From contig OZ246416.1 of NCBI GenBank assembly GCA_965231095.1, positions 1-48,937 of the forward strand: a stretch of DNA of 48,937 nt, written 5' to 3'. Of this stretch, positions 101 through 44,727 are shown piece after piece. Source of the DNA: an uncultured Gammaproteobacteria bacterium (GTDB taxonomy: Bacteria; Patescibacteriota; Patescibacteriia; XYB2-FULL-38-15). Below the pieces are notes generated by a model. That model did no database searches and was not told the DNA's origin. It saw nothing but the letters and a program-made list of their open reading frames with translations. Each line of letters begins with the position of its first letter. Positions within the stretch are counted from its first letter, which is position 1. The position numbers and the translations under genes were made by a program.

Positions 101-739
101 ATGCCCATATTAAAAAATAAAGAAGATGGCGCAGAGACCACGCCCGTCGCTTTGTCGGGGAATGAAAAAAAAGAAGGAACAACTATAAAGCGTTTTACGG
201 AATATATTTTGGAAGTGATAAAAGTGATTTTAATTTCCCTGGCCATTATTGTGCCGGTGCGATATTTTTTGATTCAGCCGTTTTACGTCAAAGGCGCGTC
301 CATGGAGCCGAATTTTTTTGATCATGAATATTTGATTATTAATGAAATAAGTTATCGTTTTAATTCACCGGAGAGGGGAGATATCGTGGTTTTTAAATAT
401 CCGCGGGATCCGAGCCAATATTTTATCAAAAGAATTATCGGCCTGCCCAACGAAACATTAGAAATTAAAAACGGGAAAATTACGGTTTTTAATAACGATT
501 CTCGGGACGGCCTGGTTTTGGAAGAAGAATATTTGGAAGAAGAGGTAAAAACTTTTGGCGATCGAACAATTTCTCTGGGCGCGGACGAATATTTTATTAT
601 GGGTGACAATCGTCTGGCGAGTTTTGATTCGCGGAGTTTTGGGCCGATTAAAAGAGAAAGTATTGTTGGAAAAGTGTGGTTTAGGGGCTGGCCATTTAAT
701 AAATTAAAAGTTTTTGAAACACCCGAATATAATCAGTAA
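101..739 (+). CDS. lepB: Signal peptidase I
   Basis: TM helix, catalytic Ser motif GASMEP, Lys motif YFIKRIIG, GDNRLASFDSR box. Confidence 0.95.
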   Translation: MPILKNKEDGAETTPVALSGNEKKEGTTIKRFTEYILEVIKVILISLAIIVPVRYFLIQPFYVKGASMEPNFFDHEYLIINEISYRFNSPERGDIVVFKYPRDPSQYFIKRIIGLPNETLEIKNGKITVFNNDSRDGLVLEEEYLEEEVKTFGDRTISLGADEYFIMGDNRLASFDSRSFGPIKRESIVGKVWFRGWPFNKLKVFETPEYNQ

Positions 740-745
740 TTAAGT

Positions 746-2128
746 ATGGCAAAAAAAGTTAAAGCGCAAAAAAAAGTAAAAAAGCCGCGAGCGGTCGCCA
801 AAAAACCGAAGAAAGTTAAAGTCGCCGGACCGCAGAAAACGAGAGTTTTTCAGACGCTTCGCGGGATGAAAGATCTTCTGCCGGGAGAATATAAGTATTG
901 GCATCTCATAAAAACTCGCGCGGAAAATTTTTCCAATAATTACGGTTATGAATTTATTGAAACGCCGATTTTGGAAGAAACATCTTTATTTAACCGGGCG
1001 GTGGGCGGAGAAACGGATATTGTGGGAAAAGAGATGTTCACCTTTGTTGACCGCGGCGGGGAAAATGTTTGTTTGCGGCCGGAAGCGACGGCTTCCATCG
1101 CGCGAGCTTATATTCAGCATGGCATGGTGAATCTTCCTCAGCCGGTGAAGTTTTTTTATTTTGGTCCGATGTTTCGTCATGAGCGTCCGCAAGCGGGCCG
1201 GCTTCGATCTTTCCACCAATTTGGTTTTGAAGCTTTGGGCGATGGCAACGCGGTGATTGACGCGGAAATAATTTTTTTAACTTACAATTTGATCCAGTCT
1301 TTGGGATTTAAAACAAATGTCCAGATAAATAGCATCGGCTGTCCCAAGTGCCGCGAATCTTACAAAAATAAATTAGTAAATTATTATCGCGACCGGAGAA
1401 GTTCGCTTTGTGAGGAATGCAAGAAAAGGTTGGTAAAAAATCCGCTCCGTATTTTGGATTGCAAGGAAACGGGCTGCGAATCTCTAAAAGAAGGAGCGCC
1501 GCAAATTGTTGATTATCTCTGCGATGATTGTAAAAATCATTTTGTCCGAGTTTTGGAATATCTTGACGACGCGGCCGTGCCGTACAACTTAAATCCCTAT
1601 CTTGTACGTGGTTTGGATTATTACACAAAAACAGTTTTTGAATTTTTTTCCGAGGAAAATCAAGCGGCCGGAGGAAAATCGGAAGCGTTGGGCGGGGGAG
1701 GAAGATATGATAATTTGGTGGAAGTTTTGGGCGGGCGACCGACTCCGGCTTGCGGGGTGGCGCTTGGCGTGGAGCGGTTGATTTTGAAAATAAAAGAAAA
1801 TAATATTGAAGTTCCGCCACTTCTTGTTCCTGATATTTTTTTGGCGCAGCTTGGCGAGCAGGCAAGAAAGAAAAGTTTTGCCTTGATTGAAGATTTGCGC
1901 CGTGCCGGATTTTATATTACGCACGGTTTAACCAAAGAAGGATTGAAAAAACAACTTGAAATCGCCAATAAACTTGGCGCGAGATACGCTCTGCTTTTGG
2001 GACAAAAAGAAGTTTTGGACGGGACAATTATCATCAGGGACATGGAAGGCGGTTCCCAGGAAATTGTGGATTTTGTGAAAATTGTCCAGGAAATGAAAAA
2101 GAAATTAACGAATGGTATAGCCAAGTAA
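746..2128 (+). CDS. hisS: Histidyl-tRNA synthetase with Lys-rich N-terminal extension
   Basis: LRPEATAS, FRHERPQAGRLRSFHQFG, LVRGLDYY, GGGRYD motifs; C-terminal anticodon-binding domain. Confidence 0.97.
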   Translation: MAKKVKAQKKVKKPRAVAKKPKKVKVAGPQKTRVFQTLRGMKDLLPGEYKYWHLIKTRAENFSNNYGYEFIETPILEETSLFNRAVGGETDIVGKEMFTFVDRGGENVCLRPEATASIARAYIQHGMVNLPQPVKFFYFGPMFRHERPQAGRLRSFHQFGFEALGDGNAVIDAEIIFLTYNLIQSLGFKTNVQINSIGCPKCRESYKNKLVNYYRDRRSSLCEECKKRLVKNPLRILDCKETGCESLKEGAPQIVDYLCDDCKNHFVRVLEYLDDAAVPYNLNPYLVRGLDYYTKTVFEFFSEENQAAGGKSEALGGGGRYDNLVEVLGGRPTPACGVALGVERLILKIKENNIEVPPLLVPDIFLAQLGEQARKKSFALIEDLRRAGFYITHGLTKEGLKKQLEIANKLGARYALLLGQKEVLDGTIIIRDMEGGSQEIVDFVKIVQEMKKKLTNGIAK

Positions 2129-2163
2129 GGAAATTTATCATATAATAAAATAATATAATCCAA

Positions 2164-2327
2164 AAGACCTCTTACAAAATAATTATTTCTGCTGTAACTT
2201 GTAATTTTGGCTGCAAAATTTTCGAGACTCGTCGGCTTATTAATTTATAATAAACCTCCTCGCCTCTCATATTTTTCGCTCAAAATTACTTCGTTTCGCT
2301 ACGAAATATTATTTTACAAGAGGTCTT
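2164..2327 (-). repeat. Long imperfect inverted repeat (MITE/REP-like or structured RNA)
   Basis: Ends AAGACCTCTTacAAAATAAT and ATTATTTTacAAGAGGTCTT; nested GTAATTTTG/CAAAATTAC; the two terminal-stem mismatches are G-U pairs on the minus strand. Confidence 0.6.
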
Positions 2328-2344
2328 GAAAGCGAGGTGAAAGC

Positions 2345-2596
2345 ATGGGACAAGAAGTAAAAAGAAAAAGAGGAGAAACTTTTGAAAGCATGATGAGGCG
2401 TTTTAGCCGCCGCGTTCAGCAAAGCGGAAAATTGTTGCAAGCAAAAAAAATCAGATTTCACACATCGGAAAAAAGCCGCAACTTGCAAAAAGCCTCGGCA
2501 TTACGCCGCGAAGAAATCAAGAAAAAAAGAGAATACTTGAAAAAAATCGGCAAACTCAAAGACGAATTTGAAACAAAAAATAAATTTAGAAGATAA
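2345..2596 (+). CDS. rpsU: 30S ribosomal protein bS21
   Basis: EVKRKRGETFESMMRRFSRRVQQSG pattern, basic 83 aa, upstream of yqeY as usual; SD-like GAGGTG. Confidence 0.85.
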   Translation: MGQEVKRKRGETFESMMRRFSRRVQQSGKLLQAKKIRFHTSEKSRNLQKASALRREEIKKKREYLKKIGKLKDEFETKNKFRR

Positions 2597-2607
2597 ATTT
2601 GTTTTTC

Positions 2608-3060
2608 ATGACTTTAAAAGAGCAAATTGAGAAAGACTTTACGGAAGCACGAAAAGCTAAAAATGAGCTCGTGGTTTCTGTTTTGAGTATGCTTCGGGCC
2701 GCGGTTTTGAACGCGGAGATCGCGGGCGGACGGAAAGAATTTAAAGATGATGATGTTGTAAAGGTAATTAACTCAGAGGTCAAAAAACACAAAGACTCGA
2801 TCGCGGACTATGAAAAAGGCGGCCGGGTTGATTTAGTTTCCAAAGAAAAAGCCGAGATGGATATTTTGGCAAAATATTTACCGGCAGAACTTCCGGAAGA
2901 GGAGCTAAGGAAAATTGTGGAAGAAAAAATTGGAGAACTTGGCGCGGCCGGTCCCGGAGATTTTGGAAAAGTGATGGGCGCCGTAATGAAGGCAGCCGGA
3001 GGGCGGGCTGGGGGAGACGCGGTAAGTAAAATGGTGAAAGAATTTTTAGAGAAAAAATAA
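2608..3060 (+). CDS. yqeY: GatB/YqeY domain protein
   Basis: MTLKEQIEKDF...LRAAVLNAEI, YEKGGRVDL, DFGKVMG motifs; ATG 2608 preferred over TTG 2599. Confidence 0.9.
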   Translation: MTLKEQIEKDFTEARKAKNELVVSVLSMLRAAVLNAEIAGGRKEFKDDDVVKVINSEVKKHKDSIADYEKGGRVDLVSKEKAEMDILAKYLPAELPEEELRKIVEEKIGELGAAGPGDFGKVMGAVMKAAGGRAGGDAVSKMVKEFLEKK

Positions 3061-3139: not shown

Positions 3140-4978
3140 ATGCAAGTTAAAAAAGCGTTAAAGATTTTAGCTGGATTGGCCGTTCTCGCGGCTGGTCTTT
3201 TGTTTGTTCAAATCGCTTTGGCTCAAAATTTTGGGCTAAACGAAGTGGGCAACGAAATTGCGCTGGTTGACGGCGACCCGCGGGTAATTGCCGCGAGAAT
3301 TATAAGAGTGGCGCTTGGATTTTTGGGAATTATCGCGCTTGGTATTGTGCTCTACGGCGGTTTTGTTTGGATGACTTCCGCCGGCAATGAAGAAAAAATC
3401 GCCACAGCCAAGAAAATTTTAACAAATGGGCTGATAGGTTTAGTAATTATTATAATGGCGTTTGGAATTACGCAGTATGTTTTAAATACTTTGATTGGCG
3501 TGCTCTCGGGCGGGGGTGGAGGCGCAGGCGGCGCGAGTGGCCCGCCGGCAGTTGGCCGCTACAGCGGCGCGTTGGGCAACAGCATTATTGAAAGCCATTA
3601 TCCGCCGCGCGGCGGCACGGGCATCGCCAGAAATACGAAAGTGATTATTACCTTTAAAGAGCCGATGGCGCCGGAAACTCTGATTGAAGGTTATGACAAC
3701 CGCGACACGGAAGATCTTTCCGATGACACAGTCGGAGGAGTGGCGGTTACCCCGGCGACAATTTTGCCGATAAAAAGTGAAAATATTAGAATTTATCAAT
3801 CGCTTTTGGGAGAAACCGGCGCGGGCGGCGCGCCAAATTATTTGGAGCCGAACGAAGCAAGAGTCGGCTTTACCACTGATTTGAAAAATTTTACTTTTGA
3901 TCCAACGGAACTTTTAGGAAGTCCCTCGGAAAATATTTGGTATACGGTGGCCTTAAAACCGGGTTTGAAAAAGGTAGACGGTAGCGACGCCTTTGGCGGA
4001 GCGTTTGGCGACGGCTATGCTTGGGATTTTGAAGTGAGCACTTTTGTTGACGTCACGCCGCCAAAAGTGGAAAGCGTAATTCCTGGAGACGCGTCAACTA
4101 ATGCCAGAAATATTTTGGTGCAGGTAAATTTTGATGAAGCCATGGATCCAACGACCGTGGCCGGGAAAACCGCGGATGGTTTTGATAAAATTGAGGTTAC
4201 CGCCGACGGTACGCCGGTTGCCGGTACTTGGGCGATTGGCAATCAATATAAAACTATAGAATTCACCACGGATTTTCGGTGTGGCACAAATTCTTGCGGC
4301 GGCGATGTGTATTGCTTGCCGGCGGATGCAGACATTGATGTTACAGTCAAAGCCGCGCGTCTAGGCACAACTCCGCCAGAAGCGGAAATGCCTTATACTG
4401 GCGCGACTGATGTCGTTGGCAATTCTTTGGATGGCAACGAAAACGGAACAGCCCAAGGCCCGACCACTGATAATTATTCCTGGGATTTTGCGACAAACAA
4501 TACAATTGATTTAATTCCGCCGAGAATTGAAACTCTTCTGCCAGCGGCGAGCGGAAGCGATGTAGCGCTTGATGCGCCGATTGAATTTAGATTTAGTAAA
4601 CCGATGAGTGTGACAAGTTTTTCTTCAGAAAATATTATTTTGGAAGATAACGAACGCGATGCTTGCGCAGTTTGGTTTACTTTAGGCGGCGTGGGGACAG
4701 ACGCTCTTGGCGCGCCGACGCCGCGGGGAGGAACACCAGCTAAACACAAAGCCATAATTTATCATGGAGATTTTATTGAAAGTACTGAGATGCCGACCCC
4801 GGCTCCGACTTGCGCTGACGGCGCGGCGGTTGATGAATCTCTTGTCAGATATTATCCGCGAGCGACGCACAGAATAAAAGATATTTATCAAAATTGTTTC
4901 TATGAGCCAGTCGGCCCGGCCAGAGGAACAAGTTGCACTGCCACTGGCGGCGCGGACTGCAGGTGGCCGGTAGAATAA
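3140..4978 (+). CDS. Surface protein: signal peptide, VirB2/TrbC-like (T4SS) pilin domain, Gly linker, Ig-like (Big_5-type) domains
   Basis: DPRVIAARIIRVALGFLG...YGGFVWMTSAGNEEKIATAKKILTNGLIGLVII two-helix pilin; beta-rich repeats such as DVTPPKVESVIP and LIPPRIETLLP; ATG 3140 preferred over GTG 3116. Confidence 0.75.
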   Translation: MQVKKALKILAGLAVLAAGLLFVQIALAQNFGLNEVGNEIALVDGDPRVIAARIIRVALGFLGIIALGIVLYGGFVWMTSAGNEEKIATAKKILTNGLIGLVIIIMAFGITQYVLNTLIGVLSGGGGGAGGASGPPAVGRYSGALGNSIIESHYPPRGGTGIARNTKVIITFKEPMAPETLIEGYDNRDTEDLSDDTVGGVAVTPATILPIKSENIRIYQSLLGETGAGGAPNYLEPNEARVGFTTDLKNFTFDPTELLGSPSENIWYTVALKPGLKKVDGSDAFGGAFGDGYAWDFEVSTFVDVTPPKVESVIPGDASTNARNILVQVNFDEAMDPTTVAGKTADGFDKIEVTADGTPVAGTWAIGNQYKTIEFTTDFRCGTNSCGGDVYCLPADADIDVTVKAARLGTTPPEAEMPYTGATDVVGNSLDGNENGTAQGPTTDNYSWDFATNNTIDLIPPRIETLLPAASGSDVALDAPIEFRFSKPMSVTSFSSENIILEDNERDACAVWFTLGGVGTDALGAPTPRGGTPAKHKAIIYHGDFIESTEMPTPAPTCADGAAVDESLVRYYPRATHRIKDIYQNCFYEPVGPARGTSCTATGGADCRWPVE

Positions 4979-5002
4979 TAATATAATTAGTGTGGCCAGA
5001 TT

Positions 5003-8000
5003 ATGAAACCACACGAGAGAAAAATTTTAAAATTTCTTTTTTCCCTGTTTTTGCTCACGGGCGCGTTTTTGTTTGCGACAACGATTTTTGCTCAAGATTT
5101 TGGCGTGAATGAAGTGGGAAATGAAATTGCTCTGCCGACATCTGATCCGAGAGTGGTCGCGGCGCAAATTGTCCGCGTGGCATTGGGATTTTTGGGAATT
5201 GTGGCGGTGGCGATTGTGATTTATGGCGGTTTTGTTTGGATGACGGCCAGCGGGAATGAAGAGCAAATTAGCAAAGCCAAAAAGATTTTGACCAATGGCG
5301 TGATTGGTTTAGTTATTATTGTAATGGCTTTTGGCATTACCCAGTTTGTTTTAACAAGATTAATGGAAGTGACGGGAATTTCGGGCGGTCCGGGCGGGGG
5401 CGGCGGAGGTGGAGGCGGCGGCGGAGGCGGTTTGCCGTCTGATTCATTTATTGTCCGCGGAATTCAGCCAAATGGTTCTGTGCCGATTAGAAACGTGACC
5501 GTGCGAGTTGTTTTTAATAAAGCCGTAGATTCAACAACCCTGACAGATAATTTTAACGTGAGAAAAACGGCTGACGGAAGTTTAGTGGCCGGAACGGCGA
5601 GCGCTTCGGGAACAGTATTGGAATTTGTCCCCAATGCCGCGTGCCCTGCGCCGAATGGAGACAGAAAATGTTTTGACGGAGATACGGAATTTACCGTGGA
5701 AGTGACAACGAGCTTGCGGAGTACGGACGGAAGAAATTTAATTTGCGGAGGCCTCGCGCCAAATTGTACTGCCAATTTCACAACAGGAAACTTGGTTGAC
5801 GTAACCGGGCCGACGGTGGAGATAACTTATCCTGATCCGGGCGATTCGGTTTCTGCCGATGCTATAGTTTCGATTGAGGCAGAGGCCGCCGACGACGCGG
5901 GAATTTCTTATTTGGAATATTTTTCAAATGGCGGGACGCTCGGCACTGACGCACCGACGGGTCCAACGCCGCTCACTTATTCTTCAATTTTTGATTGGGA
6001 TACAACCGGCGTGACCTTAGGTTCACGGCACACGCTTACGGCAGAAGCTTTTGATATTGATTCAAATAATACTACGTCAGGCGGGGTGGATGTAATCGTT
6101 CGCGCGGCGCATTGTTTTAATGGTAGCCGCGATGCGGATGAAACAGACATTGATTGCGGCGGCGCGGATTGCGGAACCTGCGATGGCGGGTCATGTACTT
6201 CCGGAGCAGATTGCCGGGGTGGGACTTGCGTTGGCGGGGTTTGCCGAACATTACCGACAATTACCGGAGTTTCTCCAAACGACGGGGCAGTGGGAAATTA
6301 TGTGACAATTTTTGGCCAAGGTTTTGGCATCGTGCCCGGACAAGTTTATTTTAATAATGTTTTGGCCGGAGCGCCGGTTTGCCCGGCTTCCACGACTTGG
6401 CAGAATAATCAAATTATTGTAGTGGTTCCGGCCGGCGCGACCGATGGAGCGGTCAAGGTTGTTGTTCCTCCGCCGACAGGCGCGACCGCGGAGGAATATA
6501 CTGATCAAACCGATGATGAGCGCGGGCCGACTCTGCCGAATTTTGATGTTAATGATACAGCGCGGCCGGGAATTTGTTCTATCACGCCGGATTCCGGCGA
6601 ACCACGGAGTGATGTTGTTGTCGCCGGTACGCAATTTGGCGCGACGCAAGGAACAAGCGAAATTATTTTTGGCGGCACGCGAGCCGAGCGCGTCAGTCTT
6701 TGGACCGCCGCGAGCATTGGCGCGGTTGTCCCTCTTATTGCTCCGGCAACTGTTCCGGTGCAGGTTGTAGTTGGCGGACAAAATAGTAATCCAATTAATT
6801 TTCGAGTTGCCGCCACGGCCGATGCTCCAAGAATTTTGAGTTTCACTCCAACGCACGGACCGGTGGGCGAGTATGTGACAATTTTTGGCGCCAATTTTGG
6901 AGATACGACTGGACAAGTATTTTTTAAAGATGCGCTTGGCGCGGATCTTTTGGCTGATGTGAATTTCCCCGCGGCTTGCGGCGCTGATTGGTGGAGAAAT
7001 GATCAAATTATCGTAAAAGTTCCGACCGGCGCGGCGACAGATATTTTAAAAATTACAACCGGAGGCGCCTCGGGCGGCTTGTCTGATGATACAATCGATT
7101 TAACCACTTCAGATTTTACGGTTGATGCCGGCGCGGCCGGTCCGGGAATTTGTAAAATTACGCCGGACAACGGGCCCATTGATTTACCGGTCGTGATTAA
7201 TGGCGAGCGTTTTGGCGCGTCAGCTTTAGTTAATTTTTATCGGGCAACTCCCGCGACCGTTACTCCGACTGATGGCGCGCAAATTTCTACCTCGGTGCCA
7301 GTGGGATCCCAGACTGGTCCGGTTAATGTTACCTCCGGCGCCGTCACGGGCAACAGTGTAAATTTTACAGTTCAAGATTGTCGCGCGGGAGCAACGTGTT
7401 CGTCCGGAGAGCAATGCTGCCGCGATGGTAGTTGTGCGGTTGCTTGCGCCGCCGCCGCGGGGAAGGGATATTATTTTTGGCAATTTTCTACCGGTCAGCT
7501 TCCTGTTTATCCGCAGGTAGTTGAAAGTTGCAGCAATCCGCCGCCGCCTTCTCCGCCCTCGCCCTCGCCCTGGTCCGGACGAGATGGGGGAGAGAGGGTT
7601 TGCGTGAATGCCCTAGTAACAGCGCGGTTCACGACAAAAATAAATCCGGCGTCAGCTGGCAGTGAAAATATTTTAGTTGAAAGTTGTTCTGACCAAACTT
7701 GTGTCACAAGATCCGTGGTTGCCGGAGCAATTAGATTTTTGAGCGCCTCTTCCGCGCAAGATGGTTTTGAATTTACTCCTACGGGAAATTTAGCAAGAAA
7801 TAATTGGTATCAAGTAACTTTAAAAAGTGACGCGGCGCTTGGCACGGGAATAGAAAGTTGTCTTGGCGGCGCGGGCTGTCCGGATGGAGGATTTTTCTTG
7901 GATGGCGACCGAGATGGAGTTGAGGGTGGAGATTATGTTTGGAAATTTAAGACGCGCGACAGCGATGAAACTTGCGCCATTGGTTTAATTGGAGTTTTGC

Positions 8001-11000
8001 CTTATGAGATGACTTTAAATAGCGTGGATGCGACGCAAGATTATAACGGCCAATGTTACGCGGCCGGCGATGTTTGCGTGGCAGTAAATTGTAGCGGGTA
8101 CACTTGGGGTTGGTCTTCTTCTGACGTTTCGCGGGCTACGGTGGAAAATCGTGCGACCCCGGACACAAGAGCCACAGCTCGGGTGGAAACGGAAGTCGGC
8201 CGGCCAGTTAGAATTACCGGCGAAATTCCAAGCGAAAGAAAATCTGGTGTAGGAAATTTGACGATTGATTTTACTGATCCAAAAGTTGTGGATAAATGGC
8301 CGAATTGCAGCGACGCTTGTCTTAATGCAGAAATCGGCGCGAAATTTAATACCAGCATGAATCAGGTGAGCGTGGAGAGCGCGGCCAATGTCCATCTTTA
8401 TATTTGGAAATGCGGCAACGGCGTGCTTGAACCGGGCGAAGATTGCGACGATGGAAACGCGACCGCGGGCGATGGTTGCGGCGCGACTTGTTTGAACGAA
8501 GGATCAGACGCGCGCTATGGCGCTTATTGTCACAATAGCCGACGAGAAACCGGCGAAGATTGTGACGGTGAACCATTCCCGGCGCGTTGTAATCCAACCA
8601 CTTGTTTAAATTCCGGCAGCGACGGCGCGGCGGCAGTTTGCGGAAACGGATTGATTGAAGAAGGCGAAGATTGTGACGGTTCGCCATTTCCCTCTGGTTG
8701 CAACGCGACAAATTGTTTGAATGAAGGAACGCAAGCGCTCCAAGAAATTTCTTTGGTCGGAATTTCTTATAACAGCGTCGCTAAAAAAATAGTTATTAAT
8801 CCGACGCCAATTAGTCTCGCTCCGCGGACATATTTTTTACCAAATACTTATTATCGCGCAGTGATTTCCGATGCCGTTATGTCAACGAGCGGCGTTCATC
8901 TGACTGATTTAAATTATGATGCCACCTCTCCGGCGGGGAATGATTCTTATTCTTGGACTTTTAAAACTAAAGATGATACCAACCCTTGCGCGGTGGATCG
9001 CGTGGCAGTTGATCCGCAAAGCGCGATTTTAAATTTTATTGGTGAAACACAAAATTATTCTTCCACGCCATTCAGCAATCCCGATCTTTGCAGCCCGGCC
9101 GGCCAGCGGCTTGGGGCAATGGATTATAATTGGGGATGGACATCGCGCGACCCGGGCGTGGCCACAATTACAAATAATAACAATTATCCGTCTTGCGGAA
9201 ATGGTGTAAAAGAATTTGGCGAGGATTGCGACGATGGAAATATCGCGGCGGCCGACGGTTGCGGCGCAAGTTGTTTGAACGAAGGAACAATTGCGCCAAC
9301 TTGCGGCAATGGCGCGATTAATGTCGGTGAAGATTGTGACGATAGCAATACTCGTTCTGGCGATGGGTGTAATAGTACTTGTCGGCATGAAGGCTCTGTG
9401 GCCGGCGGGGGAGTTTGCGGCAATCGCGCGAAAGAGCGCGGGGAAGATTGCGATGACGGTAATGCTCCCGGCCCGGGTTGCAGTGCCACATGTTTAAATG
9501 AAGGAACGGTCACGGACAGCAGAATTGATCCTTATCAGACGGCCGAGGCGATTGATCTTGCGGTGGAAGACGTGGCCGCCGGGGTAAACTCCAGCACCAC
9601 AGAAATTTCAGCCGCGGCGGAAGGAAAATCCGACAGCGGTGATTTGACTTTGCGTTGCGGCGGGCAAGATTGTCGGGCGATTAGTCCGTCTTGTGTTTTG
9701 ACATCAAATATTTGCGCGGGAACAACTTCACAAGCTTGCACGAACGATGAGGATTGCACATTGGGCGTTGGCCGGAATACTTGCTGCTACTTTAAACCAA
9801 AAGTTAAAGATTGCGATCCCACTCGAGAAGGCGCGGTTGATTGCGATGATGGAGCGGTTAACGTTTGTCGCAATGCTAAAATTTCCGCGACTTTTGATCA
9901 GGTAATGGAAACAGCGAGCGTGACGGGAAATATTTTAGTGGTTAGTGATTACAGCGGCGTCTGTCCCGAAGGGGCAACGGCTCTGACCCTGTGGTCCGGG
10001 GAAGAAAAATCCGGCTGGAAGTTCGCGGAGAAAATAAAAGAGTGGCTGCCTGCGCCCATCGCGAAAATTTTGGCGAGACCGATTGCAAAAATAGAAAATG
10101 ATTTAGCAATTTTTGGAGAAGTTAAAAATTTTATCAATCAATTTAGCCAATCATTGTTTGGCTGGCCCGCGAGCGCGGCTCCGGCTTCGCCTTGGTGCGT
10201 TTGGCCCGGGACATCGTCATCGGTTGTTACGAGAGACGGAGACAATTTTGTGACCGAAGTGAGTTTTAGCCCGACCAAAGCGTTTGACCGGGGACAAACA
10301 TATTTTGTTTTGTTGTTGGGTGACAATCCTGCGACGCCGGAAATTGAAGGAATCAGAAACGCGAAAGGCGTGGCTTTGGGCGGAGGAATATTGCGCGGCG
10401 AATATCCGGCGCCTTACAGCGCGAGAGAAATTTATCAGTGGTTATTTAGCACGGGAAACGATATTTGTACTTTAAGTCAAGTGATCGTTGCTCCAGATAC
10501 GCGCGTTTTCACGCAAAACGGCGAGACACAAGAATATTTTGCGACGGCTCGTGACGCGCGGGGCAGGCGGATTTCTTCCCTCGCGGGAGTCTATGCCTGG
10601 GAGTGGGAGGATTGGTTATCAAATGATCCGACTGTGGTTGAATTGGATGTGTGGGGGACTTGTTCCGGAACATCGGGAGCGGCTTGCCGTAATGATGACG
10701 GCTGCGTTTTGGCGGGCGGGGTCTGCGAAACCAATAATAAACAAATTGCCACGGCGCAAAATAAAAATGGTGAAGCCAGAATTTTGGTTTCGGCAAAAAT
10801 TACGGCGGACACGATTTTGTCTCCACGGACCGTGGGGCGAGTTGCCTCCGGCGGAGCCGACGCCACGGTTTTACTTTGTGAAAATCCGTGGCCGGCCGAT
10901 TTTGGCGTGAGCGGAGGATTTATGGACACGGCGTTTAATTTTAAAACTTATTATTGCCGTGACCGGGGAGAGCTTGGCGCGGAGGATGACCTTCCGGAGG

Positions 11001-13666
11001 TGAGCGATCCGCCTGTCGCGCCGTCGGTTGTTTCGCCTGGAACTTCCAGTGATGTTTTGCTCAAAGAATATTTTATGTTTGTGGGAGGAAGTTATTGCAC
11101 GCTTTCTAAACTTCCCTGCAATACGGAAAATCCATGCGCCGATGGCGCCGGATCGTGCCAGAATTCTTCCGACGCGATTGGCATTAGAATTTATACCAAC
11201 AAAAATCATTTTGCCCTGACCGATTGGTATTTGGCTCAGGGATTCAGGCCGACGGCTCCGAGCGGCAAAACCGTTGATCAATATGAAGCAGTGGAAGACG
11301 GCCGGACAATTTATGTTTCCGCGGCAAATCAGCCGAGTGATGCGGATGGTTCTGGTTCCGATCCAGATATTTACACTAATGTTTATTTGATTTCATACAA
11401 TGAAGGTGCGAGCCAGGATACAATTGATATTTATAATCAATTGGTGGAAAATTGGAAATTTAATATTAATTTAGCGAATAATAAAGTTTGTAAAAATGCG
11501 GCGGGGGGATTGCCAGAGGGGGAGGCTGCAAATATTTCATGTTCAGCCGATTTGGACTGTCCCCAAACTCCGACGCAATTTTTGTGCGACGCGCCAAAAG
11601 ATAAATTGGCTCGCGACGTAAAACGGTTGCATGATTTGGAAAAAATAAAAGCGGCAGTGGAAAGATACCGTGTGACGCGCGGTTATCCGCCGAAATTGGA
11701 AGCGGGTTCGTATGTCCGAGGAATTTCTACAAGTAGATGGGATTCCTGGGCGGTTTTGGGCCAAGAACTCGGCGGCGGTCTGCCACAAGATCCATTAAAT
11801 AAATTTCAAGGATGTGTTGATCCCTATAGCGCGGATACTTGCTGGGACACGAGCGGAGAAACTTACCGCTGTCCGGGCTTGTCGCATATTTATCAATATC
11901 GTTATGAATCGGCTACGGGGTTTTATAACATTGGCGGTGATTTGGAATACAGGCTTGGAACAATGATAAATCCGAGTTGGAGTTGGTTTAGAGGTGCCGT
12001 CCCGACTTATATTGCTTATGAAAATGTTTGCGATGGTTCAACCTTTAGCGTGGGCGGAGTTTGTGGTGATGGAATCATAAATGCCAGTGAAGAATGCGAG
12101 CCGAGTCTGGCAAACACTTGTTCAAATGATCCAACGACTTTTTGCCGAAGCGATGTGGAATGCGGCGGGGGAACATGCCGGGTTAATGAAGAAAGTTGTA
12201 TTGCATCAAGCGGAGCTACCGGCCGCCGAAGCCGTACTTGTAATTTAGCCACCTGCCGTTTTAATGATTGGGGATCGTGCCTTGCCAGTTGCGGCAACGG
12301 GATTATTGATATTGGTGAAGCTTGCGATCGCGGTCCGGGCGGCGGAAGAATTCCGGGCGGCGGAACCCTGCCTACTAATGAATATCAATGTTCTACGGTT
12401 TGTAGAATGAGCGGTGGTTATTGCGGCGATGGAGTTTTGCAAAGTTCTTTTGGAGAAAGATGCGATGATGGAGCGGATAATGGCCGTTACGGTAGAAAAG
12501 CAGATGGCACGCCATATTGCGCGGCGGGTTGTGTTGGTTCGGCGCCATTTTGCGGAAACACGGTGACTGACGGTGGAGAAGAGTGCGACAGAAATTTACA
12601 AACAACGAGAGGTGTCTGTTATATGGGAGCGGCAAGGCCTGGTGATGAAAGTACTGCTAGCGGACCGTATACCTGTGAAAGTGACAGTGATTGTCCGGGC
12701 GGTTTGCGTTGCGCCGTTTGTTCCGACGCGGGTATTTATCAAAGGATTAGAACAAGTAATTGTTTGCCCAGCGGTCATAGTTCGGAGTGCCGATGGGGTA
12801 CATGGACTGCGTGTACTGTGGCCGGCGAATGCGGCAACAGCGTGGTGGAGGGCGGGGAGCAATGCGACGATGGAAATGATATAGCTACCGATACTTGCAA
12901 TAATTGTCAAAATTCTCGTTGCGGTGACGGCGCGGTGCGTGCAGGGATAGAATCGTGCGATTCGGGTGCGGCCAACGGAACGCCCTGCACGGCGTCGTAT
13001 GGTTCAACTTGTAATTATTGCAGTTCAAGTTGTACTTTGCGGACAGTCTCCGGCCTGACTTGCGGCGACGGGACAGTGAGCGGCGCGGAACAATGTGATA
13101 GTCGTCTGCCTCCATATCCGGCGAGTTGGCTTTGCGTTGATACTTCAAATCCTTGGGGCAAGCCGCTTGATCTTGCCACACCAAGTTGCAGTCCGTCATC
13201 TTGCGCGATTTCCTGCGCGACCGGCCGGGCTTGTGACAATAGAAAGTATGGATCTGGCGGAGCAATTAATCCCGACGCGGACGGAGACGGAATTTTTGAC
13301 GCCTGCGACCCGAATGATAATAGTAATACTGATGGTTGTATGGACGACGCGACAAATTGCGCGAGAGTTGATTTGAGAATTACTGCGGATGCAGGCGATT
13401 TCTTTCAGGTTTATATTGATGGCCACCTTGCTAATACATCGGAACGTTCCGTCATGGGAACTTTAATGGCAAGTATAGATACTCTTTCAAGGGGGCTGCA
13501 TAATTTGCGCATTGTCTATGCTTCAGGAACTCCGTCGGGTATTTATGATGTTGACTTTTACTATGACTCACCTTCAAGAGCGGGAGTTGACTTCGGGGTT
13601 GCTGATTATAGATTGCCACTCGTGAATTTTGGTGATGAAGTAAGAGTTGATTTTACTGTTAGATAA
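5003..13666 (+). CDS. Giant 2887-aa surface protein: VirB2-like pilin, Ig-like and IPT/TIG domains, 13 DUF4215-like Cys repeats, GspG/type IV pilin-like segment
   Basis: Uninterrupted ORF; pilin head paralogous to the upstream gene; TIG-like ITGVSPNDGAVGNYVTIFGQGFG repeats; CGNG...GEDCDDG repeats; RDVKRLHDLEKIKAAVERY motif. Confidence 0.8.
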   Translation: MKPHERKILKFLFSLFLLTGAFLFATTIFAQDFGVNEVGNEIALPTSDPRVVAAQIVRVALGFLGIVAVAIVIYGGFVWMTASGNEEQISKAKKILTNGVIGLVIIVMAFGITQFVLTRLMEVTGISGGPGGGGGGGGGGGGGLPSDSFIVRGIQPNGSVPIRNVTVRVVFNKAVDSTTLTDNFNVRKTADGSLVAGTASASGTVLEFVPNAACPAPNGDRKCFDGDTEFTVEVTTSLRSTDGRNLICGGLAPNCTANFTTGNLVDVTGPTVEITYPDPGDSVSADAIVSIEAEAADDAGISYLEYFSNGGTLGTDAPTGPTPLTYSSIFDWDTTGVTLGSRHTLTAEAFDIDSNNTTSGGVDVIVRAAHCFNGSRDADETDIDCGGADCGTCDGGSCTSGADCRGGTCVGGVCRTLPTITGVSPNDGAVGNYVTIFGQGFGIVPGQVYFNNVLAGAPVCPASTTWQNNQIIVVVPAGATDGAVKVVVPPPTGATAEEYTDQTDDERGPTLPNFDVNDTARPGICSITPDSGEPRSDVVVAGTQFGATQGTSEIIFGGTRAERVSLWTAASIGAVVPLIAPATVPVQVVVGGQNSNPINFRVAATADAPRILSFTPTHGPVGEYVTIFGANFGDTTGQVFFKDALGADLLADVNFPAACGADWWRNDQIIVKVPTGAATDILKITTGGASGGLSDDTIDLTTSDFTVDAGAAGPGICKITPDNGPIDLPVVINGERFGASALVNFYRATPATVTPTDGAQISTSVPVGSQTGPVNVTSGAVTGNSVNFTVQDCRAGATCSSGEQCCRDGSCAVACAAAAGKGYYFWQFSTGQLPVYPQVVESCSNPPPPSPPSPSPWSGRDGGERVCVNALVTARFTTKINPASAGSENILVESCSDQTCVTRSVVAGAIRFLSASSAQDGFEFTPTGNLARNNWYQVTLKSDAALGTGIESCLGGAGCPDGGFFLDGDRDGVEGGDYVWKFKTRDSDETCAIGLIGVLPYEMTLNSVDATQDYNGQCYAAGDVCVAVNCSGYTWGWSSSDVSRATVENRATPDTRATARVETEVGRPVRITGEIPSERKSGVGNLTIDFTDPKVVDKWPNCSDACLNAEIGAKFNTSMNQVSVESAANVHLYIWKCGNGVLEPGEDCDDGNATAGDGCGATCLNEGSDARYGAYCHNSRRETGEDCDGEPFPARCNPTTCLNSGSDGAAAVCGNGLIEEGEDCDGSPFPSGCNATNCLNEGTQALQEISLVGISYNSVAKKIVINPTPISLAPRTYFLPNTYYRAVISDAVMSTSGVHLTDLNYDATSPAGNDSYSWTFKTKDDTNPCAVDRVAVDPQSAILNFIGETQNYSSTPFSNPDLCSPAGQRLGAMDYNWGWTSRDPGVATITNNNNYPSCGNGVKEFGEDCDDGNIAAADGCGASCLNEGTIAPTCGNGAINVGEDCDDSNTRSGDGCNSTCRHEGSVAGGGVCGNRAKERGEDCDDGNAPGPGCSATCLNEGTVTDSRIDPYQTAEAIDLAVEDVAAGVNSSTTEISAAAEGKSDSGDLTLRCGGQDCRAISPSCVLTSNICAGTTSQACTNDEDCTLGVGRNTCCYFKPKVKDCDPTREGAVDCDDGAVNVCRNAKISATFDQVMETASVTGNILVVSDYSGVCPEGATALTLWSGEEKSGWKFAEKIKEWLPAPIAKILARPIAKIENDLAIFGEVKNFINQFSQSLFGWPASAAPASPWCVWPGTSSSVVTRDGDNFVTEVSFSPTKAFDRGQTYFVLLLGDNPATPEIEGIRNAKGVALGGGILRGEYPAPYSAREIYQWLFSTGNDICTLSQVIVAPDTRVFTQNGETQEYFATARDARGRRISSLAGVYAWEWEDWLSNDPTVVELDVWGTCSGTSGAACRNDDGCVLAGGVCETNNKQIATAQNKNGEARILVSAKITADTILSPRTVGRVASGGADATVLLCENPWPADFGVSGGFMDTAFNFKTYYCRDRGELGAEDDLPEVSDPPVAPSVVSPGTSSDVLLKEYFMFVGGSYCTLSKLPCNTENPCADGAGSCQNSSDAIGIRIYTNKNHFALTDWYLAQGFRPTAPSGKTVDQYEAVEDGRTIYVSAANQPSDADGSGSDPDIYTNVYLISYNEGASQDTIDIYNQLVENWKFNINLANNKVCKNAAGGLPEGEAANISCSADLDCPQTPTQFLCDAPKDKLARDVKRLHDLEKIKAAVERYRVTRGYPPKLEAGSYVRGISTSRWDSWAVLGQELGGGLPQDPLNKFQGCVDPYSADTCWDTSGETYRCPGLSHIYQYRYESATGFYNIGGDLEYRLGTMINPSWSWFRGAVPTYIAYENVCDGSTFSVGGVCGDGIINASEECEPSLANTCSNDPTTFCRSDVECGGGTCRVNEESCIASSGATGRRSRTCNLATCRFNDWGSCLASCGNGIIDIGEACDRGPGGGRIPGGGTLPTNEYQCSTVCRMSGGYCGDGVLQSSFGERCDDGADNGRYGRKADGTPYCAAGCVGSAPFCGNTVTDGGEECDRNLQTTRGVCYMGAARPGDESTASGPYTCESDSDCPGGLRCAVCSDAGIYQRIRTSNCLPSGHSSECRWGTWTACTVAGECGNSVVEGGEQCDDGNDIATDTCNNCQNSRCGDGAVRAGIESCDSGAANGTPCTASYGSTCNYCSSSCTLRTVSGLTCGDGTVSGAEQCDSRLPPYPASWLCVDTSNPWGKPLDLATPSCSPSSCAISCATGRACDNRKYGSGGAINPDADGDGIFDACDPNDNSNTDGCMDDATNCARVDLRITADAGDFFQVYIDGHLANTSERSVMGTLMASIDTLSRGLHNLRIVYASGTPSGIYDVDFYYDSPSRAGVDFGVADYRLPLVNFGDEVRVDFTVR

Positions 13667-13702
13667 ATTTAATAATAATTTTAAAAATTTTAATACCCCG
13701 AT

Positions 13703-13774
13703 GTCAAAATCATCTCTCAAAAACTATTTTATTTTTTAAGATATATTTTTGACTTTTGACTTTTGACTTTTGAA
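13703..13774. repeat. Heptamer array (TTTTGAC)x3 plus TTTTGAA with upstream inverted partners
   Basis: Units at 13747-13774; GTCAAAA at 13703 and CTCAAAA at 13716. Confidence 0.8.
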
Positions 13775-13782
13775 TTAAACTT

Positions 13783-14421
13783 ATGTTTGACAAAGAACCC
13801 GAGGACATGTTTGCCGGCGTGGAGCCGACAGGGCAAGAACCGCTGCGGCCGGCTGGCGCGCTTTCGCCGACCGTGCCTGGCATGCCCGGAACCGCCTCTG
13901 CAGTTGGGGCAACTCCGACAGAGGTTGGGGAAGAGGGCGGAGGTCCGGGAAAAAAGAAAATGATTTTGGTTTTGGCGGCCGCGATTTTAGTTTTAATTCT
14001 TGGCGGCGGCGGATTTCTTGTGTGGCGGCAATTTACATCCGCGCCGGAAGCAACTCTTGAAACGCCGGAAGTGAACGCTAATTTACCGGCAGTAAATACT
14101 CCGGTTGAAACCGCGCCGATTGTGAATGAGGCTCCTGCGGAAATTCCTCCGGCAGTTTTGGAAACCGCGCCGGTTATTCCTCCGGTGGGAAGCGTTGATT
14201 CGGATGGGGATGGTCTGACCGACGCGCAAGAGGTGACTCTTGGAACTGACGCGACAAATACCGACACAGATCTGGACGGACTCTCAGATGGCGAAGAAGT
14301 AAATACTTATCTTACCGATCCCTTAAATGCGGATACAGACGGCGATACATATTTGGACGGAGCTGAAGTCGACGCCGGGTATGACCCCAAGGGGCCGGGG
14401 AGATTGTCGGAACAGCCGTAG
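13783..14421 (+). CDS. Membrane-anchored protein with Ca-binding DxDxDG (thrombospondin type-3-like) repeats
   Basis: Single TM, Pro/Ala linker, DSDGDGLTDAQE, DTDLDGLSDGEE, DTDGDTYLDGAE. Confidence 0.75.
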   Translation: MFDKEPEDMFAGVEPTGQEPLRPAGALSPTVPGMPGTASAVGATPTEVGEEGGGPGKKKMILVLAAAILVLILGGGGFLVWRQFTSAPEATLETPEVNANLPAVNTPVETAPIVNEAPAEIPPAVLETAPVIPPVGSVDSDGDGLTDAQEVTLGTDATNTDTDLDGLSDGEEVNTYLTDPLNADTDGDTYLDGAEVDAGYDPKGPGRLSEQP

Positions 14422-14883: not shown

Positions 14884-15861
14884 ATGCCAAACGGAGAGCA
14901 AAAACCAATAAATATCGCCGAAGAACCGCCGGTGGAAATTAAGGCCATGCCCGAGCAGTTTTATTTTAAGAAAGTGAATGTGCCAAAGGAGGGCAAGAGT
15001 GGAGGATCAAAAACAACCCTGCTTATCGCGGTTGGGGCGGTGGTGATTGTTCTTTTGGCAATTGCGGCATATCTTTTTACTCAAAGTTTGAAACCGAAAA
15101 CCGCCGTGACGCCGCCGGCAAATACCAATACGGCGGTGAACGCGCCGGTAAATGCGTCGCCGGTTAATGTTCCCGTTAACGCTCCGGCTAATGTCCCGGC
15201 CGCTCCGATTTGCGGCAATGGTGTTTGTGAATCCGGAGAAACTTCCATCACGTGCCTTGCCGATTGTCCCGCGCCCATTCCCGAACCAGAGGTTCCTCTG
15301 GTTTCGGCAATTGATACGGATCAAGACGGCCTGACGGACGTGGAGGAGTTATTGTTTAATACCGATCCGAGCAAATCTGACACTGACGGAGACAGCTATC
15401 CTGATACTTTAGAACTTATAAATTTATACAACCCGACCGGGCTTGCTCCGCAAAAAATTGAGGAAACAAACTTGGTAAAAATTTATAATAATCAGATTTA
15501 CAATTACTCCATTTTTTATCCGTCACTTTGGATTATGAGAGCGCTTGATGAAACAAGCCAAGAGGTTATGTTCACGTCGGCCACAGGAGAAATTTTTGAA
15601 GTGATTGTTGATGAAAATCCCAATCGTCTGCCGCTTTTGGAATGGTATTCATCTTTGTCGCCGGAAACAAATCTCTCCGAACTCTCCGACGTCACGACAA
15701 AAGGCGGCCTGCTCGGGAAAAAGAGTCCGGACGGGCTCACGGCTTATTTTTCCTCGAGAGATAAAATTTATGTGATTAGTTACGGGGTGGGAAATAAAAC
15801 GGAATTAAATTATGAGAGTACTTTTGAAATGATTTTAAGAAGTTTTAGGATTGGTTTGTAA
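14884..15861 (+). CDS. Membrane-anchored protein: TM, one Cys repeat, DxDxDG Ca-binding repeats, probable PsbP-like C-terminal domain
   Basis: TM near aa 46-66; CGNGVCESGE; DTDQDGLTDVEE; YNYSIFYPSLW start of C-terminal domain. Confidence 0.65.
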   Translation: MPNGEQKPINIAEEPPVEIKAMPEQFYFKKVNVPKEGKSGGSKTTLLIAVGAVVIVLLAIAAYLFTQSLKPKTAVTPPANTNTAVNAPVNASPVNVPVNAPANVPAAPICGNGVCESGETSITCLADCPAPIPEPEVPLVSAIDTDQDGLTDVEELLFNTDPSKSDTDGDSYPDTLELINLYNPTGLAPQKIEETNLVKIYNNQIYNYSIFYPSLWIMRALDETSQEVMFTSATGEIFEVIVDENPNRLPLLEWYSSLSPETNLSELSDVTTKGGLLGKKSPDGLTAYFSSRDKIYVISYGVGNKTELNYESTFEMILRSFRIGL

Positions 15862-22971: not shown

Positions 22972-24210
22972 ATGTTCCAAGATAAATCTTTCCAAAAAAT
23001 TATCGTAGCCGCGGCGCTTGTTGGTTTGATTTTTGGGGGAGTGGGCGGGACGCTCGGCGGGCTTTATGGCAAAAGCTATATCATTCCGTGGTTTGCCAAA
23101 AATTTTTTAGGCCAGGATGTCGTTATTGGCGGGGGGAGCGCGAGCGAGCAGGCGAAAACTCAAGCGGTTATAGAGGAATCAGCAACGGTTGACGCCGTTA
23201 AAAAAGTCGCTCCGGCCGTGGTTTCAATAATTATTTCCAAAGATATTAGTAAAATAAATAATTATAATAATTTCCCCTTTGAGTTGTTCGGTTTTAATTT
23301 TCCCTTTGGTTCCGGGGAACCAAATACTGGCAGTACGGGTAAAACAGAAGTTGGCGGGGGAACGGGCTTTATTATTTCTTCGGATGGTTTGATTTTAACC
23401 AATAAACACGTGGCTTCGGACGCGGAGGCGGAATATACGGTCATAACAAATGACGACCAAAAGTACGACGCGAAAATTTTAGCGACTGATCCGGTTTTGG
23501 ATATAGCCGTTTTAAAAATTGAAGCCGCCGGCCTCCCGACGGTGGAACTGGGTGATTCCGATAAAATTGAACTTGGTCAAACAGTAATAGCCATTGGCAA
23601 TTCGCTCGGGGAATATAAAAATACCGTGACTAAAGGAGTTATCTCGGGTATGGGCCGAAGGATTGTGGCGGGCAATAATCAGGGCGGATCAGAAGTGATT
23701 GAAGAGGCGATCCAAACAGACGCGGCGATTAATCCGGGAAATTCTGGCGGTCCGCTTATAAATTTGGCCGGACAGGTAATTGCCATTAACACCGCCATGA
23801 ATCAGGAAGGGCAGCTGATCGGTTTTGCCATTCCGATTAACGCGGCCAAGCAAGACATTGAAAGTGTAAAAACGAGCGGGAAAATTGTTCGGCCGTGGCT
23901 TGGTGTCCGCTATGTTTTGATTAATGAGGAAATTGCTAAAGAAAATCAATTGGAAAAAGATTATGGCGCGCTTGTAGCCCGCGGCCAAAAACAAACAGAC
24001 TTGGCAGTGGTGCCGGGTTCTCCGGCCGACAAGGCGGGGATTGTGGAAAATGATATTATTTTGGAAATTAATGGACAAAAAATAGACGAAGAGCACGCGC
24101 TGGCCAGGGAAATTGCGAAACATAAACCCGGGGAGGAAATAACCCTAAAAGTTTTGCGAAAAGGCGAGGAAAAAGATATTAAAGTAACGCTTGGCGAATA
24201 TAAAGATTAA
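22972..24210 (+). CDS. htrA: HtrA/DegP-family serine protease with TM anchor and one PDZ domain
   Basis: TNKHV, DIAVLKI, QTDAAINPGNSGGPL catalytic triad; PDZ GSPADKAG. Confidence 0.92.
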   Translation: MFQDKSFQKIIVAAALVGLIFGGVGGTLGGLYGKSYIIPWFAKNFLGQDVVIGGGSASEQAKTQAVIEESATVDAVKKVAPAVVSIIISKDISKINNYNNFPFELFGFNFPFGSGEPNTGSTGKTEVGGGTGFIISSDGLILTNKHVASDAEAEYTVITNDDQKYDAKILATDPVLDIAVLKIEAAGLPTVELGDSDKIELGQTVIAIGNSLGEYKNTVTKGVISGMGRRIVAGNNQGGSEVIEEAIQTDAAINPGNSGGPLINLAGQVIAINTAMNQEGQLIGFAIPINAAKQDIESVKTSGKIVRPWLGVRYVLINEEIAKENQLEKDYGALVARGQKQTDLAVVPGSPADKAGIVENDIILEINGQKIDEEHALAREIAKHKPGEEITLKVLRKGEEKDIKVTLGEYKD

Positions 24211-37552: not shown

Positions 37553-37571
37553 AGAATAAAAATTTTGTAAT

Positions 37572-37620
37572 AAAAAAAAATGACCCCGCGCGTTCTCCTC
37601 TTCAGAGAATTCGCGGGGTC
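37572..37620 (-). terminator. Intrinsic terminator of cassette A with GAAGA loop
   Basis: Minus strand GACCCCGCG-AA-TTCTCT-GAAGA-GGAGAA-CG-CGCGGGGTC then A and a U-run. Confidence 0.8.
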
Positions 37621-37625
37621 TGTCG

Positions 37626-39011: not shown

Positions 39012-39087
39012 GGATTCCATTCCTCCTTCTTTTTCCGCCCTCAGCGGAAGTTGTGCGGCGCCCCTTGCGCCGCTTTCTGCTACTTTT

Positions 39088-43470: not shown

Positions 43471-43476
43471 TTTTGT

Positions 43477-44712: not shown

Positions 44713-44727
44713 TATTAAATTTTTCCC

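Follow-up and report, generated by a model that had tools for sequence, protein, structure and literature searches.

Two adjacent genes, here called A and B, encode surface proteins of 612 and 2,887 residues that share an N-terminal pilin domain of the PF18895 family (the head) in front of very different passengers. They lie in a 48,937-nucleotide stretch of DNA (the window; contig OZ246416.1 of assembly GCA_965231095.1) from an uncultured member of the Patescibacteriota. Many genomes of the ABY1/Parcubacteria type have A and B as core genes in a conserved order (lepB-hisS-rpsU-A-B), and in these the two heads evolve in concert. Tentatively, and with a little less than even confidence, we read A and B as modular PF18895 pilins whose shared head would join an assembly of short pilins probably built by a type IV secretion system (T4SS), A being a conserved immunoglobulin-like (Ig-like) stalk and B a long, partly variable adhesin. 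The pair and its parts are as follows.

3140–4978, forward strand: gene A, pilin-headed Ig-like surface protein of 612 residues
3140–3223, forward strand: signal peptide of A, residues 1–28, with a predicted cleavage between IALA and QNF that was read from the sequence
3224–3505, forward strand: pilin head of A, residues 29–122, an N-terminal conserved segment and two helices with the loop SAGNEEK
3506–3559, forward strand: Gly/Pro-rich flexible linker of A, residues 123–140, predicted local distance difference test score (pLDDT) below 50
3560–4975, forward strand: passenger of A, tandem Ig-like (Big_5) domains and a Cys-containing C-terminal part
5003–13666, forward strand: gene B, giant pilin-headed surface protein of 2,887 residues
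5003–5092, forward strand: signal peptide of B, residues 1–30, with a predicted cleavage between TIFA and QDF, likewise read from the sequence
5093–5371, forward strand: pilin head of B, residues 31–123
5372–5431, forward strand: poly-Gly linker of B, residues 124–143
5432–13663, forward strand: passenger of B, with Big_5, Big_7, three to four TIG and Big_5 domains, Cys-rich DUF4215/TIGR02232 repeats and an unannotated C-terminus
6200–7402, forward strand: conserved module 1 of B, the TIG/IPT region, residues ~400–800
9800–11002, forward strand: conserved module 2 of B, residues ~1600–2000, with one partial Big_5 match and the rest unannotated

The open reading frame (ORF) of A opens at GTG 3116, and the ATG at 3140 is the start that agrees with those of its homologues. 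Both ORFs are open and continuous over their full length. Their N-termini align by BLASTP with 72 identities in 103 positions (E=1e-52). The initial annotation had described the two ORFs with heads identical at 68 of 88 positions (nucleotides 3221–3484 and 5090–5353), a count that was reproduced exactly from the translations, and had given each gene a signal peptide and a poly-Gly linker, both of which are present. The Gly-rich linker stands directly behind each head ('SGGGGGAGGASGPP' in A and 'GGPGGGGGGGGGGGGG' in B). The signal peptides are of the classical type I, with cleavage after Ala and mature starts QNFG and QDFG, and are not class III peptides of the kind cut by a prepilin peptidase (after G, ahead of F/M xxxE); Ala28 of the A signal peptide is near-invariant across the A family. 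At the other end, A finishes with ...CRWPVE and B with ...VRVDFTVR, and neither an LPXTG motif nor a transmembrane (TM) tail was found at these C-termini. A hidden Markov model (HMM) built from the two heads detected no third copy in a six-frame translation of the window, and a promoter and terminator scan around the pair gave no signal above shuffled background.

The head certainly belongs to the PF18895 pilin family. HMM searches for T4SS_pilin, Big_5, TIG and DUF4215, which the initial annotation had proposed, found T4SS_pilin in both proteins, Big_5 in A, and TIG, Big_5, Big_7 and DUF4215 in B. A scores 27.5 bits against PF18895 (33.7 for the head alone) and B 34.0 (37.3), both passing the gathering score of 26.6, and all 74 aligned head relatives match the family. 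A profile search of 5.8 billion proteins with the head returned 2,450 matches; the best 120 are nearly all free-standing Patescibacteria proteins of 115–145 residues with PF18895 and 45–69% identity, and include a few fragments with the same head, a poly-Gly linker and the start of a passenger. An exhaustive HMM search of 1.84 billion cluster representatives recovered 66,207 members of the head family at E≤1e-3, and a single N-terminal head on a protein of 500–3,650 residues was seen in 26 of the best 150 representatives. The heads carry the same invariant Gly/Trp-Met-Thr/Gly-Asn-Glu motif as free-standing pilins, and positions G63, G74, M78, T79, G82 and G100 are invariant in the short pilins and the A family alike.

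The initial annotation called the head VirB2/TrbC-like. What stands of this is a PF18895 T4SS-pilin module with a signal peptide and a helical hairpin, whereas the link to canonical VirB2 is weak. PF04956 (TrbC) reached 16.5 bits (E=0.01) with the N-terminus of B, below its cut-off of 27.9, and did not match A, such that neither protein attains the gathering score; sub-threshold matches were obtained for 41 of the 74 head relatives (best E-value 7.6e-6). Comparison by hhalign with authentic A. fabrum VirB2, taken from pTiC58, gave a probability of 43% (E=2.5e-4) and that with a five-sequence VirB2 alignment 20% (E=1.1e-3), weak values that nonetheless share one register (DP...G.W-M, loop, helix 2). 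Foldseek matched the head model only to generic helical hairpins in the PDB (ATP synthase c, HR1 and CHMP4B, all at E≥0.8), and a profile of 74 head-family members found one chance match among PDB sequences; these searches are uninformative because the hairpin is so simple. Only non-significant matches came from tblastn of the head against plasmids, the best being annotated as pilin-like proteins, and NF045849 (Mbov_0395 family pilin-like conjugal transfer protein) matches both heads below its cut-off (E=2.5e-8 and 5.4e-9). Judged by such sequence comparisons, 'VirB2-like' seems a reasonable label for the head.

An AlphaFold2 model of the head based on the 74-sequence alignment (mean pLDDT 80) consists of a signal-peptide helix (residues 2–29) and a hairpin of two long hydrophobic helices (47–79 and 84–124) joined by the loop SAGNEEK, the 18-residue N-terminal segment between signal helix and hairpin being poorly ordered. 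The hairpin is repeated in the model of full-length A (pLDDT 84.6; predicted template modelling score 0.74), where the linker is disordered at 122–136, and hydropathy profiles of the heads show three hydrophobic stretches, as in the models. Since the Lys-rich loop EEKIATAKK would be intracellular, we infer an N-out/C-out topology for the hairpin in the cytoplasmic membrane after signal-peptidase cleavage, with a cytoplasmic loop and an extracellular passenger. The Sec pathway and signal peptidase would insert the hairpin in this orientation, and the passengers would be displayed outside. Both termini of the known VirB2, TrbC and TraA pilins face outward, and an extension at the C-terminus would therefore do so too. 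At the nucleotide level the heads of A and B are 71% identical, and 28 of the 70 codons for identical residues differ synonymously; the similarity of the heads is therefore due to purifying selection and not to recent gene conversion.

The long disordered Gly/Pro linker directly behind helix 2 also suggests a different use of the head, as a transient export and membrane-holding device from which the passenger is cut at or near the linker and then freed or passed to the wall, and an HtrA-type protease gene is present in the window (22972–24210). We regard this as improbable because neither A nor B has a cleavage motif or a sortase signal, and a plain signal peptide would suffice for release, without a conserved hairpin.

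The model of full-length A is a chain of Ig-like β-sandwiches. Foldseek matched it best to LdtMt2 (bacterial Ig-like domains), titin Z1Z2 and Ig receptors; an enzyme fold is not among these matches. The passenger has many invariant residues over 52 homologues. In B, the N-terminal part comprises Big_5 (164–261), Big_7 (270–347), three to four TIG domains (~420–700) and a second Big_5 (861–943); Cys-rich DUF4215/TIGR02232 repeats occupy residues 1137–1500 and 2430–2720, a partial Big_5 match lies near 1615, and the C-terminus is unannotated. B has 140 cysteines in total. These Ig-like and Cys-rich domains bear out the proposal that the passengers are extracellular surface modules. They also speak against the idea that the head serves as a recognition signal for a T4SS that delivers A and B to the host as effectors. 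That idea can draw on the T4SS encoded in the window and on the fact that neither a coupling protein nor a classical effector signal is known in Patescibacteria. It is highly improbable, however, for proteins with Sec signal peptides and two membrane helices whose composition is that of extracellular, Ig-like and Cys-rich proteins and not effector-like.

Divergent cargo, as claimed in the initial annotation, is only part of the picture. The passengers of A and B (~470 and 2,744 residues) share at most 26% identity, and this in Ig-like domains only, but A is a conserved orthologous family and B has two universally conserved modules. BLASTP against 33 complete B-type ORFs identified three regions present in 94–100% of them, namely the head, module 1 (residues ~400–800, in 95–100%) and module 2 (~1600–2000, in 94–97%). 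Outside these regions the sequence varies, and that of the final 190 residues is almost unique. 'Divergent' is thus too simple a word for a cargo that is conserved in A and a mosaic in B. Searches with phmmer of the A passenger and of B residues 1590–2010 against PDB sequences gave no matches, and a homologue search with B residues 1590–2010, in which the word index was swamped, returned one unrelated FN3 protein only, so that module 2 remains unannotated. The G+C content of the two giant-gene regions of the window (4001–14000 and 30001–38000) is 0.46–0.52, compared with 0.40–0.46 in the surrounding housekeeping genes, and probably reflects the Gly/Ala/Cys-rich composition of the giant proteins.

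With full-length A as query, at least 401 homologous proteins were found. The best 120 are mostly full-length (~540–670 residues), apart from two fragments, and are 37–88% identical to A, with PF18895 and Big_5 in nearly all. The homologues listed come from Falkowbacteria, Uhrbacteria and other Patescibacteria. The database label of pilin-headed proteins is 'Ig-like domain-containing protein', and one A homologue from JGI is already named 'type IV secretion system pilin/Big-like domain-containing protein'. Two homologues (82% and 40% identity) stand in the same order as in the window, hisS-rpsU-yqeY-A-giant B-TSP3 protein. The genes that flank the pair, of which the first four form the conserved upstream synteny block (101–3060), are these.

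101–739, forward strand: lepB
746–2128, forward strand: hisS
2345–2596, forward strand: rpsU
2599–3060, forward strand: yqeY
13783–14421, forward strand: single-TM TSP3-repeat protein

Because it is often syntenic downstream of B in other genomes, the TSP3-repeat protein may belong to the same surface system as A and B.

We scanned GTDB with the head profile, using one genome per species, and classed the resulting 79 loci by six-frame HMM analysis. In 54 loci large head-bearing ORFs were found, an A-type ORF of 590–1,020 residues followed by a B-type ORF of 1,500–3,490 residues, directly downstream of lepB-hisS-rpsU(-yqeY) wherever the flank is present. Two sub-architectures can be distinguished, one with A of ~600–800 and B of ~2,200–3,490 residues, the other with A of ~880–1,020 and B of ~1,500–2,300 residues. 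The remaining 25 loci are arrays of five to nine short pilins in unrelated housekeeping contexts. It is a general possibility that an assembly or gene-calling error fused a short pilin gene to the gene downstream, and some multi-pilin database entries may indeed be read-through calls. For A and B this is next to impossible and we reject it, as the reading frames are open and continuous and the order head, linker, passenger recurs in 54 independent GTDB loci and at least 401 proteins. The head family, the short-pilin arrays and the Patescibacteria T4SS are already known; we found no paper on PF18895 or VirB2-type heads fused to large passengers, nor on the lepB-hisS-rpsU-A-B arrangement.

Some features of the short-pilin loci deserve separate mention. 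In ABY1-type genomes the arrays of five to nine genes are surrounded by housekeeping genes, T4SS genes being absent from the 10 kb around them (CP066698.1, 5070–5507 and 9995–12532, and 24 other loci), and a lone pilin gene lies directly behind that of an SBP_bac_1 solute-binding protein. The first gene of an array is its most conserved member. Many database proteins (among them P0241, P0274 and P0308) contain 2–17 PF18895-like hairpin units per chain; P0241 has eight such units in 820 residues, connected by short linkers and uninterrupted by stops. These multi-hairpin proteins are either genuine polytopic 'poly-pilins' or pilin arrays that were read through in gene calling.

The heads of A and B from the same genome have a mean identity of 59% (50 pairs), whereas orthologous heads across genomes are 46% (A–A) and 49% (B–B) identical; 47% of orthologue comparisons fall below the value of the genome's own paralogues. 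At the 70% level, zero alignment columns separate A heads from B heads. With paralogues in a genome more alike than orthologues and no column specific to A or B, the heads are thus one interchangeable module evolving in concert, which agrees with the earlier suggestion of a module common to both genes. Among the short pilins, the first of each array is nearest to the A and B heads (mean identity 0.40–0.49, compared with 0.24–0.42 for other array members), although it is also the match by which each array locus was retrieved. In the four genomes that have both the pair and an array, this lead pilin is 49–64% identical to the A and B heads of its own genome, which rank in the top 10% of all A and B heads in seven of eight comparisons. 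Such tracking would fit co-assembly or a shared partner.

These data bear on the main alternative, to which we give somewhat less weight: the hairpin would have been recruited to serve only as an anchor in the membrane or as an in-plane oligomeriser, and A and B would make up a constitutive, T4SS-independent envelope structure such as a surface fibril or an S-layer-like coat. An N-out/C-out hairpin would by itself be enough for display, and the synteny of the pair is strictly with housekeeping genes, T4SS genes never being part of it. Moreover, A is unusually conserved for an adhesin, both in its identity across the best 120 homologues and in its many invariant passenger residues, and the Big_5 of the passengers is a bacterial Ig-like domain that occurs in S-layer proteins. 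A generic anchor, however, has no need of all the family-invariant residues, the conserved extracellular N-terminal segment and the cytoplasmic loop motif, and would not track the lead short pilin of the same genome.

The other system to be considered is the T4SS gene cluster at the end of the window, which includes the following genes.

39215–39853, forward strand: 212-residue protein, two segments of which are Gly-rich and very hydrophobic; the VirB6-like gene follows just downstream
39920–42376, forward strand: VirB6-like polytopic membrane protein with a long hydrophilic C-terminus, at least seven hydrophobic segments and a faint NF046089 match, its likeness to VirB6 judged by topology; candidate partner, 26 kb from the pair
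42385–46293, forward strand: three charged, soluble proteins (361, 411 and 521 residues) between the VirB6-like and PrgI genes
46319–46744, forward strand: PrgI/VirB3-like protein (PF12666, 38.8 bits)
46754–47431, forward strand: TrsD-like protein, VirB4 N-terminal-like (E=8e-7)
47471–48937, forward strand: VirB4-like ATPase of the CD1110 family (E=2.6e-77) with a Walker A motif, running off the window end

The VirB4/VirB6/PrgI cluster placed at 39.9–48.9 kb by the initial annotation is real, and contains the TrsD-like protein besides. It is a typical, complete-looking Patescibacteria MPF_FATA-type T4SS core with a VirB4 of the monoderm clade, the gene for which is cut by the window end. The 212-residue protein and the three charged proteins have no Pfam or NCBIfam match and are probably lineage-specific parts of the system.

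VirB4 is encoded in 2,417 of 3,035 Patescibacteria assemblies (~80%), and VirB2-like pilins in 1,948, near virB4 in 1,135 of these and commonly in arrays of 2–11; no PrgB-type adhesin was detected in the 3,035 genomes (PMC12102498). As VirB4 is almost universal in Patescibacteria, co-occurrence at the genome level cannot discriminate between a T4SS-linked and a T4SS-independent pair. Both the T4SS of Southlakia epibionticum and the PF18895 pilin array belonging to it are essential (PMC10633639); a recent review grants Patescibacteria only the 'potential' to elaborate pili (PMC12857230). Outside this group, the Pontibacillus plasmid NZ_CP062975.1 has an Mbov_0395 family pilin-like protein (7722–8177) 4 kb upstream of a CD1110-family VirB4 (12171–14036). 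A hairpin pilin-like protein can therefore be part of monoderm MPF_FATA-type clusters, a point of relevance to where the pilins of Patescibacteria came from.

A and B can be set against several known systems. The short pilins of Patescibacteria, such as those of the array SEML1_0014–0019 in S. epibionticum, resemble the heads in domain, signal peptide, hairpin and invariant motif, at the 45–69% identity given above. They are 115–170 residues long and end 1–15 residues after helix 2, whereas A and B continue for 470 and 2,744 residues past the linker; and their genes form arrays of 2–11, often near virB4, whereas A and B lie beside lepB-hisS-rpsU. Canonical VirB2/TrbC (PF04956) and F-type TraA share with the heads a Sec-type signal peptide, two hydrophobic helices and a short basic loop, but their sequence relation to them is weak. 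To our knowledge there is no natural VirB2 or TraA with a large C-terminal domain. T-pilin and TrbC are cyclised, and a passenger would preclude cyclisation. The closest parallel in design logic is with modular type IV pilins (Streptococcus sanguinis PilB and PilC) and large minor type IV pilins, in which a conserved hydrophobic assembly module shared with the major pilin bears a grafted adhesive domain. Machinery and fold are unrelated, however: A and B have a type I signal peptide and a hairpin, type IV pilins one N-terminal helix and a class III signal peptide that is removed by PilD. With VirB5/CagL of diderms and the LPXTG-anchored PrgB of monoderms, A and B share only the proposed role, contact with the target cell for a T4SS; there is no homology, and A and B are without an LPXTG motif. 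Members of the Mbov_0395 family (NF045849) of monoderm integrative and conjugative elements and plasmids, whose model the heads match below cut-off, are short proteins in conjugation clusters, without a passenger. We also considered the Pam pilus system of the candidate phyla radiation (CPR), and rejected it since Pam uses Ig-like donor-strand exchange and is without a hairpin head (bioRxiv 10.64898/2026.03.03.709456).

In the modular-pilin reading, which we favour with the reserve stated at the outset, the shared head would give A and B entry to the structure made by the short pilins, in which they would be sparse subunits or stand at the base or tip. It would be the VirB4/VirB6/PrgI/TrsD machine that extracts the subunits and builds this structure, so that A, as a conserved Ig-like stalk, and B, as a long and partly variable adhesin, would be exposed on the cell and could contact the host. 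A and B might in this way fill the role of VirB5 or of PrgB-type adhesins, undetected in Patescibacteria. Several observations weigh against such a scheme. No VirB4, PrgI, TrsD or VirB6-like gene lies within 10 kb of the head-carrying genes in any of the 79 GTDB loci, and in the window 26 kb filled by housekeeping genes separate the pair from the T4SS cluster; the hypothesis of the initial annotation that the heads use this cluster found no support, and dependence of A and B on a T4SS is therefore only plausible. The link of the head to canonical VirB2 is weak. Gene conversion alone could yield the concerted evolution of the heads, and the comparison with the lead pilin covers four genomes only. 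No VirB2-type pilus has yet been seen in any Patescibacterium, and the thin filaments solved in M. amalyticus are Pam pili, another kind (bioRxiv 10.64898/2026.03.03.709456). Finally, subunits that all bore a passenger of 470–2,750 residues could not, for steric reasons, form a homopolymeric VirB2-type tube, which leaves A and B the part of minor subunits at best. Of the earlier proposal that the head is an assembly tag loading adhesins onto a T4SS-like platform, the pilin module, the extracellular passengers and the sharing of the head hold, but there is no sign of use of the T4SS cluster. A stronger version appears unlikely to us: that A and B represent the first modular VirB2-type pilins known from nature, with heads that co-polymerise with the lead short pilin on the essential Patescibacteria T4SS into a filament or stalk bearing A as a conserved Ig-like adaptor and B as a giant, partly variable adhesin.

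Several other genes of the window are worth noting. A third giant ORF (29291–37552, forward strand; 2,753 residues) has one N-terminal hydrophobic segment, is Cys-rich and shows only a faint CBM_4_9 match; it was rejected as a pilin-headed protein, no head being found in it by Pfam or the head HMM. Three single-TM proteins with bacterial TSP3 (Ca-binding) repeats are encoded on the forward strand, the one downstream of B (13783–14421) and two others at 14884–15861 and 28491–29249, the last directly upstream of the third giant ORF. Among these surface-protein genes is one for a 23S rRNA intervening-sequence protein (PF05635; 14467–14847, forward strand). The only plausible genes on the reverse strand, for a lipoprotein-like acidic protein (37626–38108) and a double zinc-ribbon protein with a TM segment (38565–39020), are found in the interval that separates the third giant gene from the T4SS cluster and in which the GC skew falls to about zero.

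The T4SS and VirB2-like pilins of Patescibacteria are essential for epibiotic growth in the one species tested, and no adhesin for host contact has been identified so far. The conserved, syntenic A–B pair is a concrete candidate for a host-contact structure in large ABY1/Parcubacteria-type lineages. The modular-pilin reading predicts that the heads of A and B co-assemble with the lead short pilin in dependence on VirB4/VirB6. If this is true, giant adhesins would be loaded onto a T4SS in a way not known before, and the pair would be the part for host contact that has been missing from the CPR T4SS; for T4SS biology, it would mean that a VirB2-type hairpin can bear passengers thousands of residues long. 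Should the head be no more than an anchor, the A–B pair would still belong to the core envelope of a major uncultured group and be of use as a surface marker.

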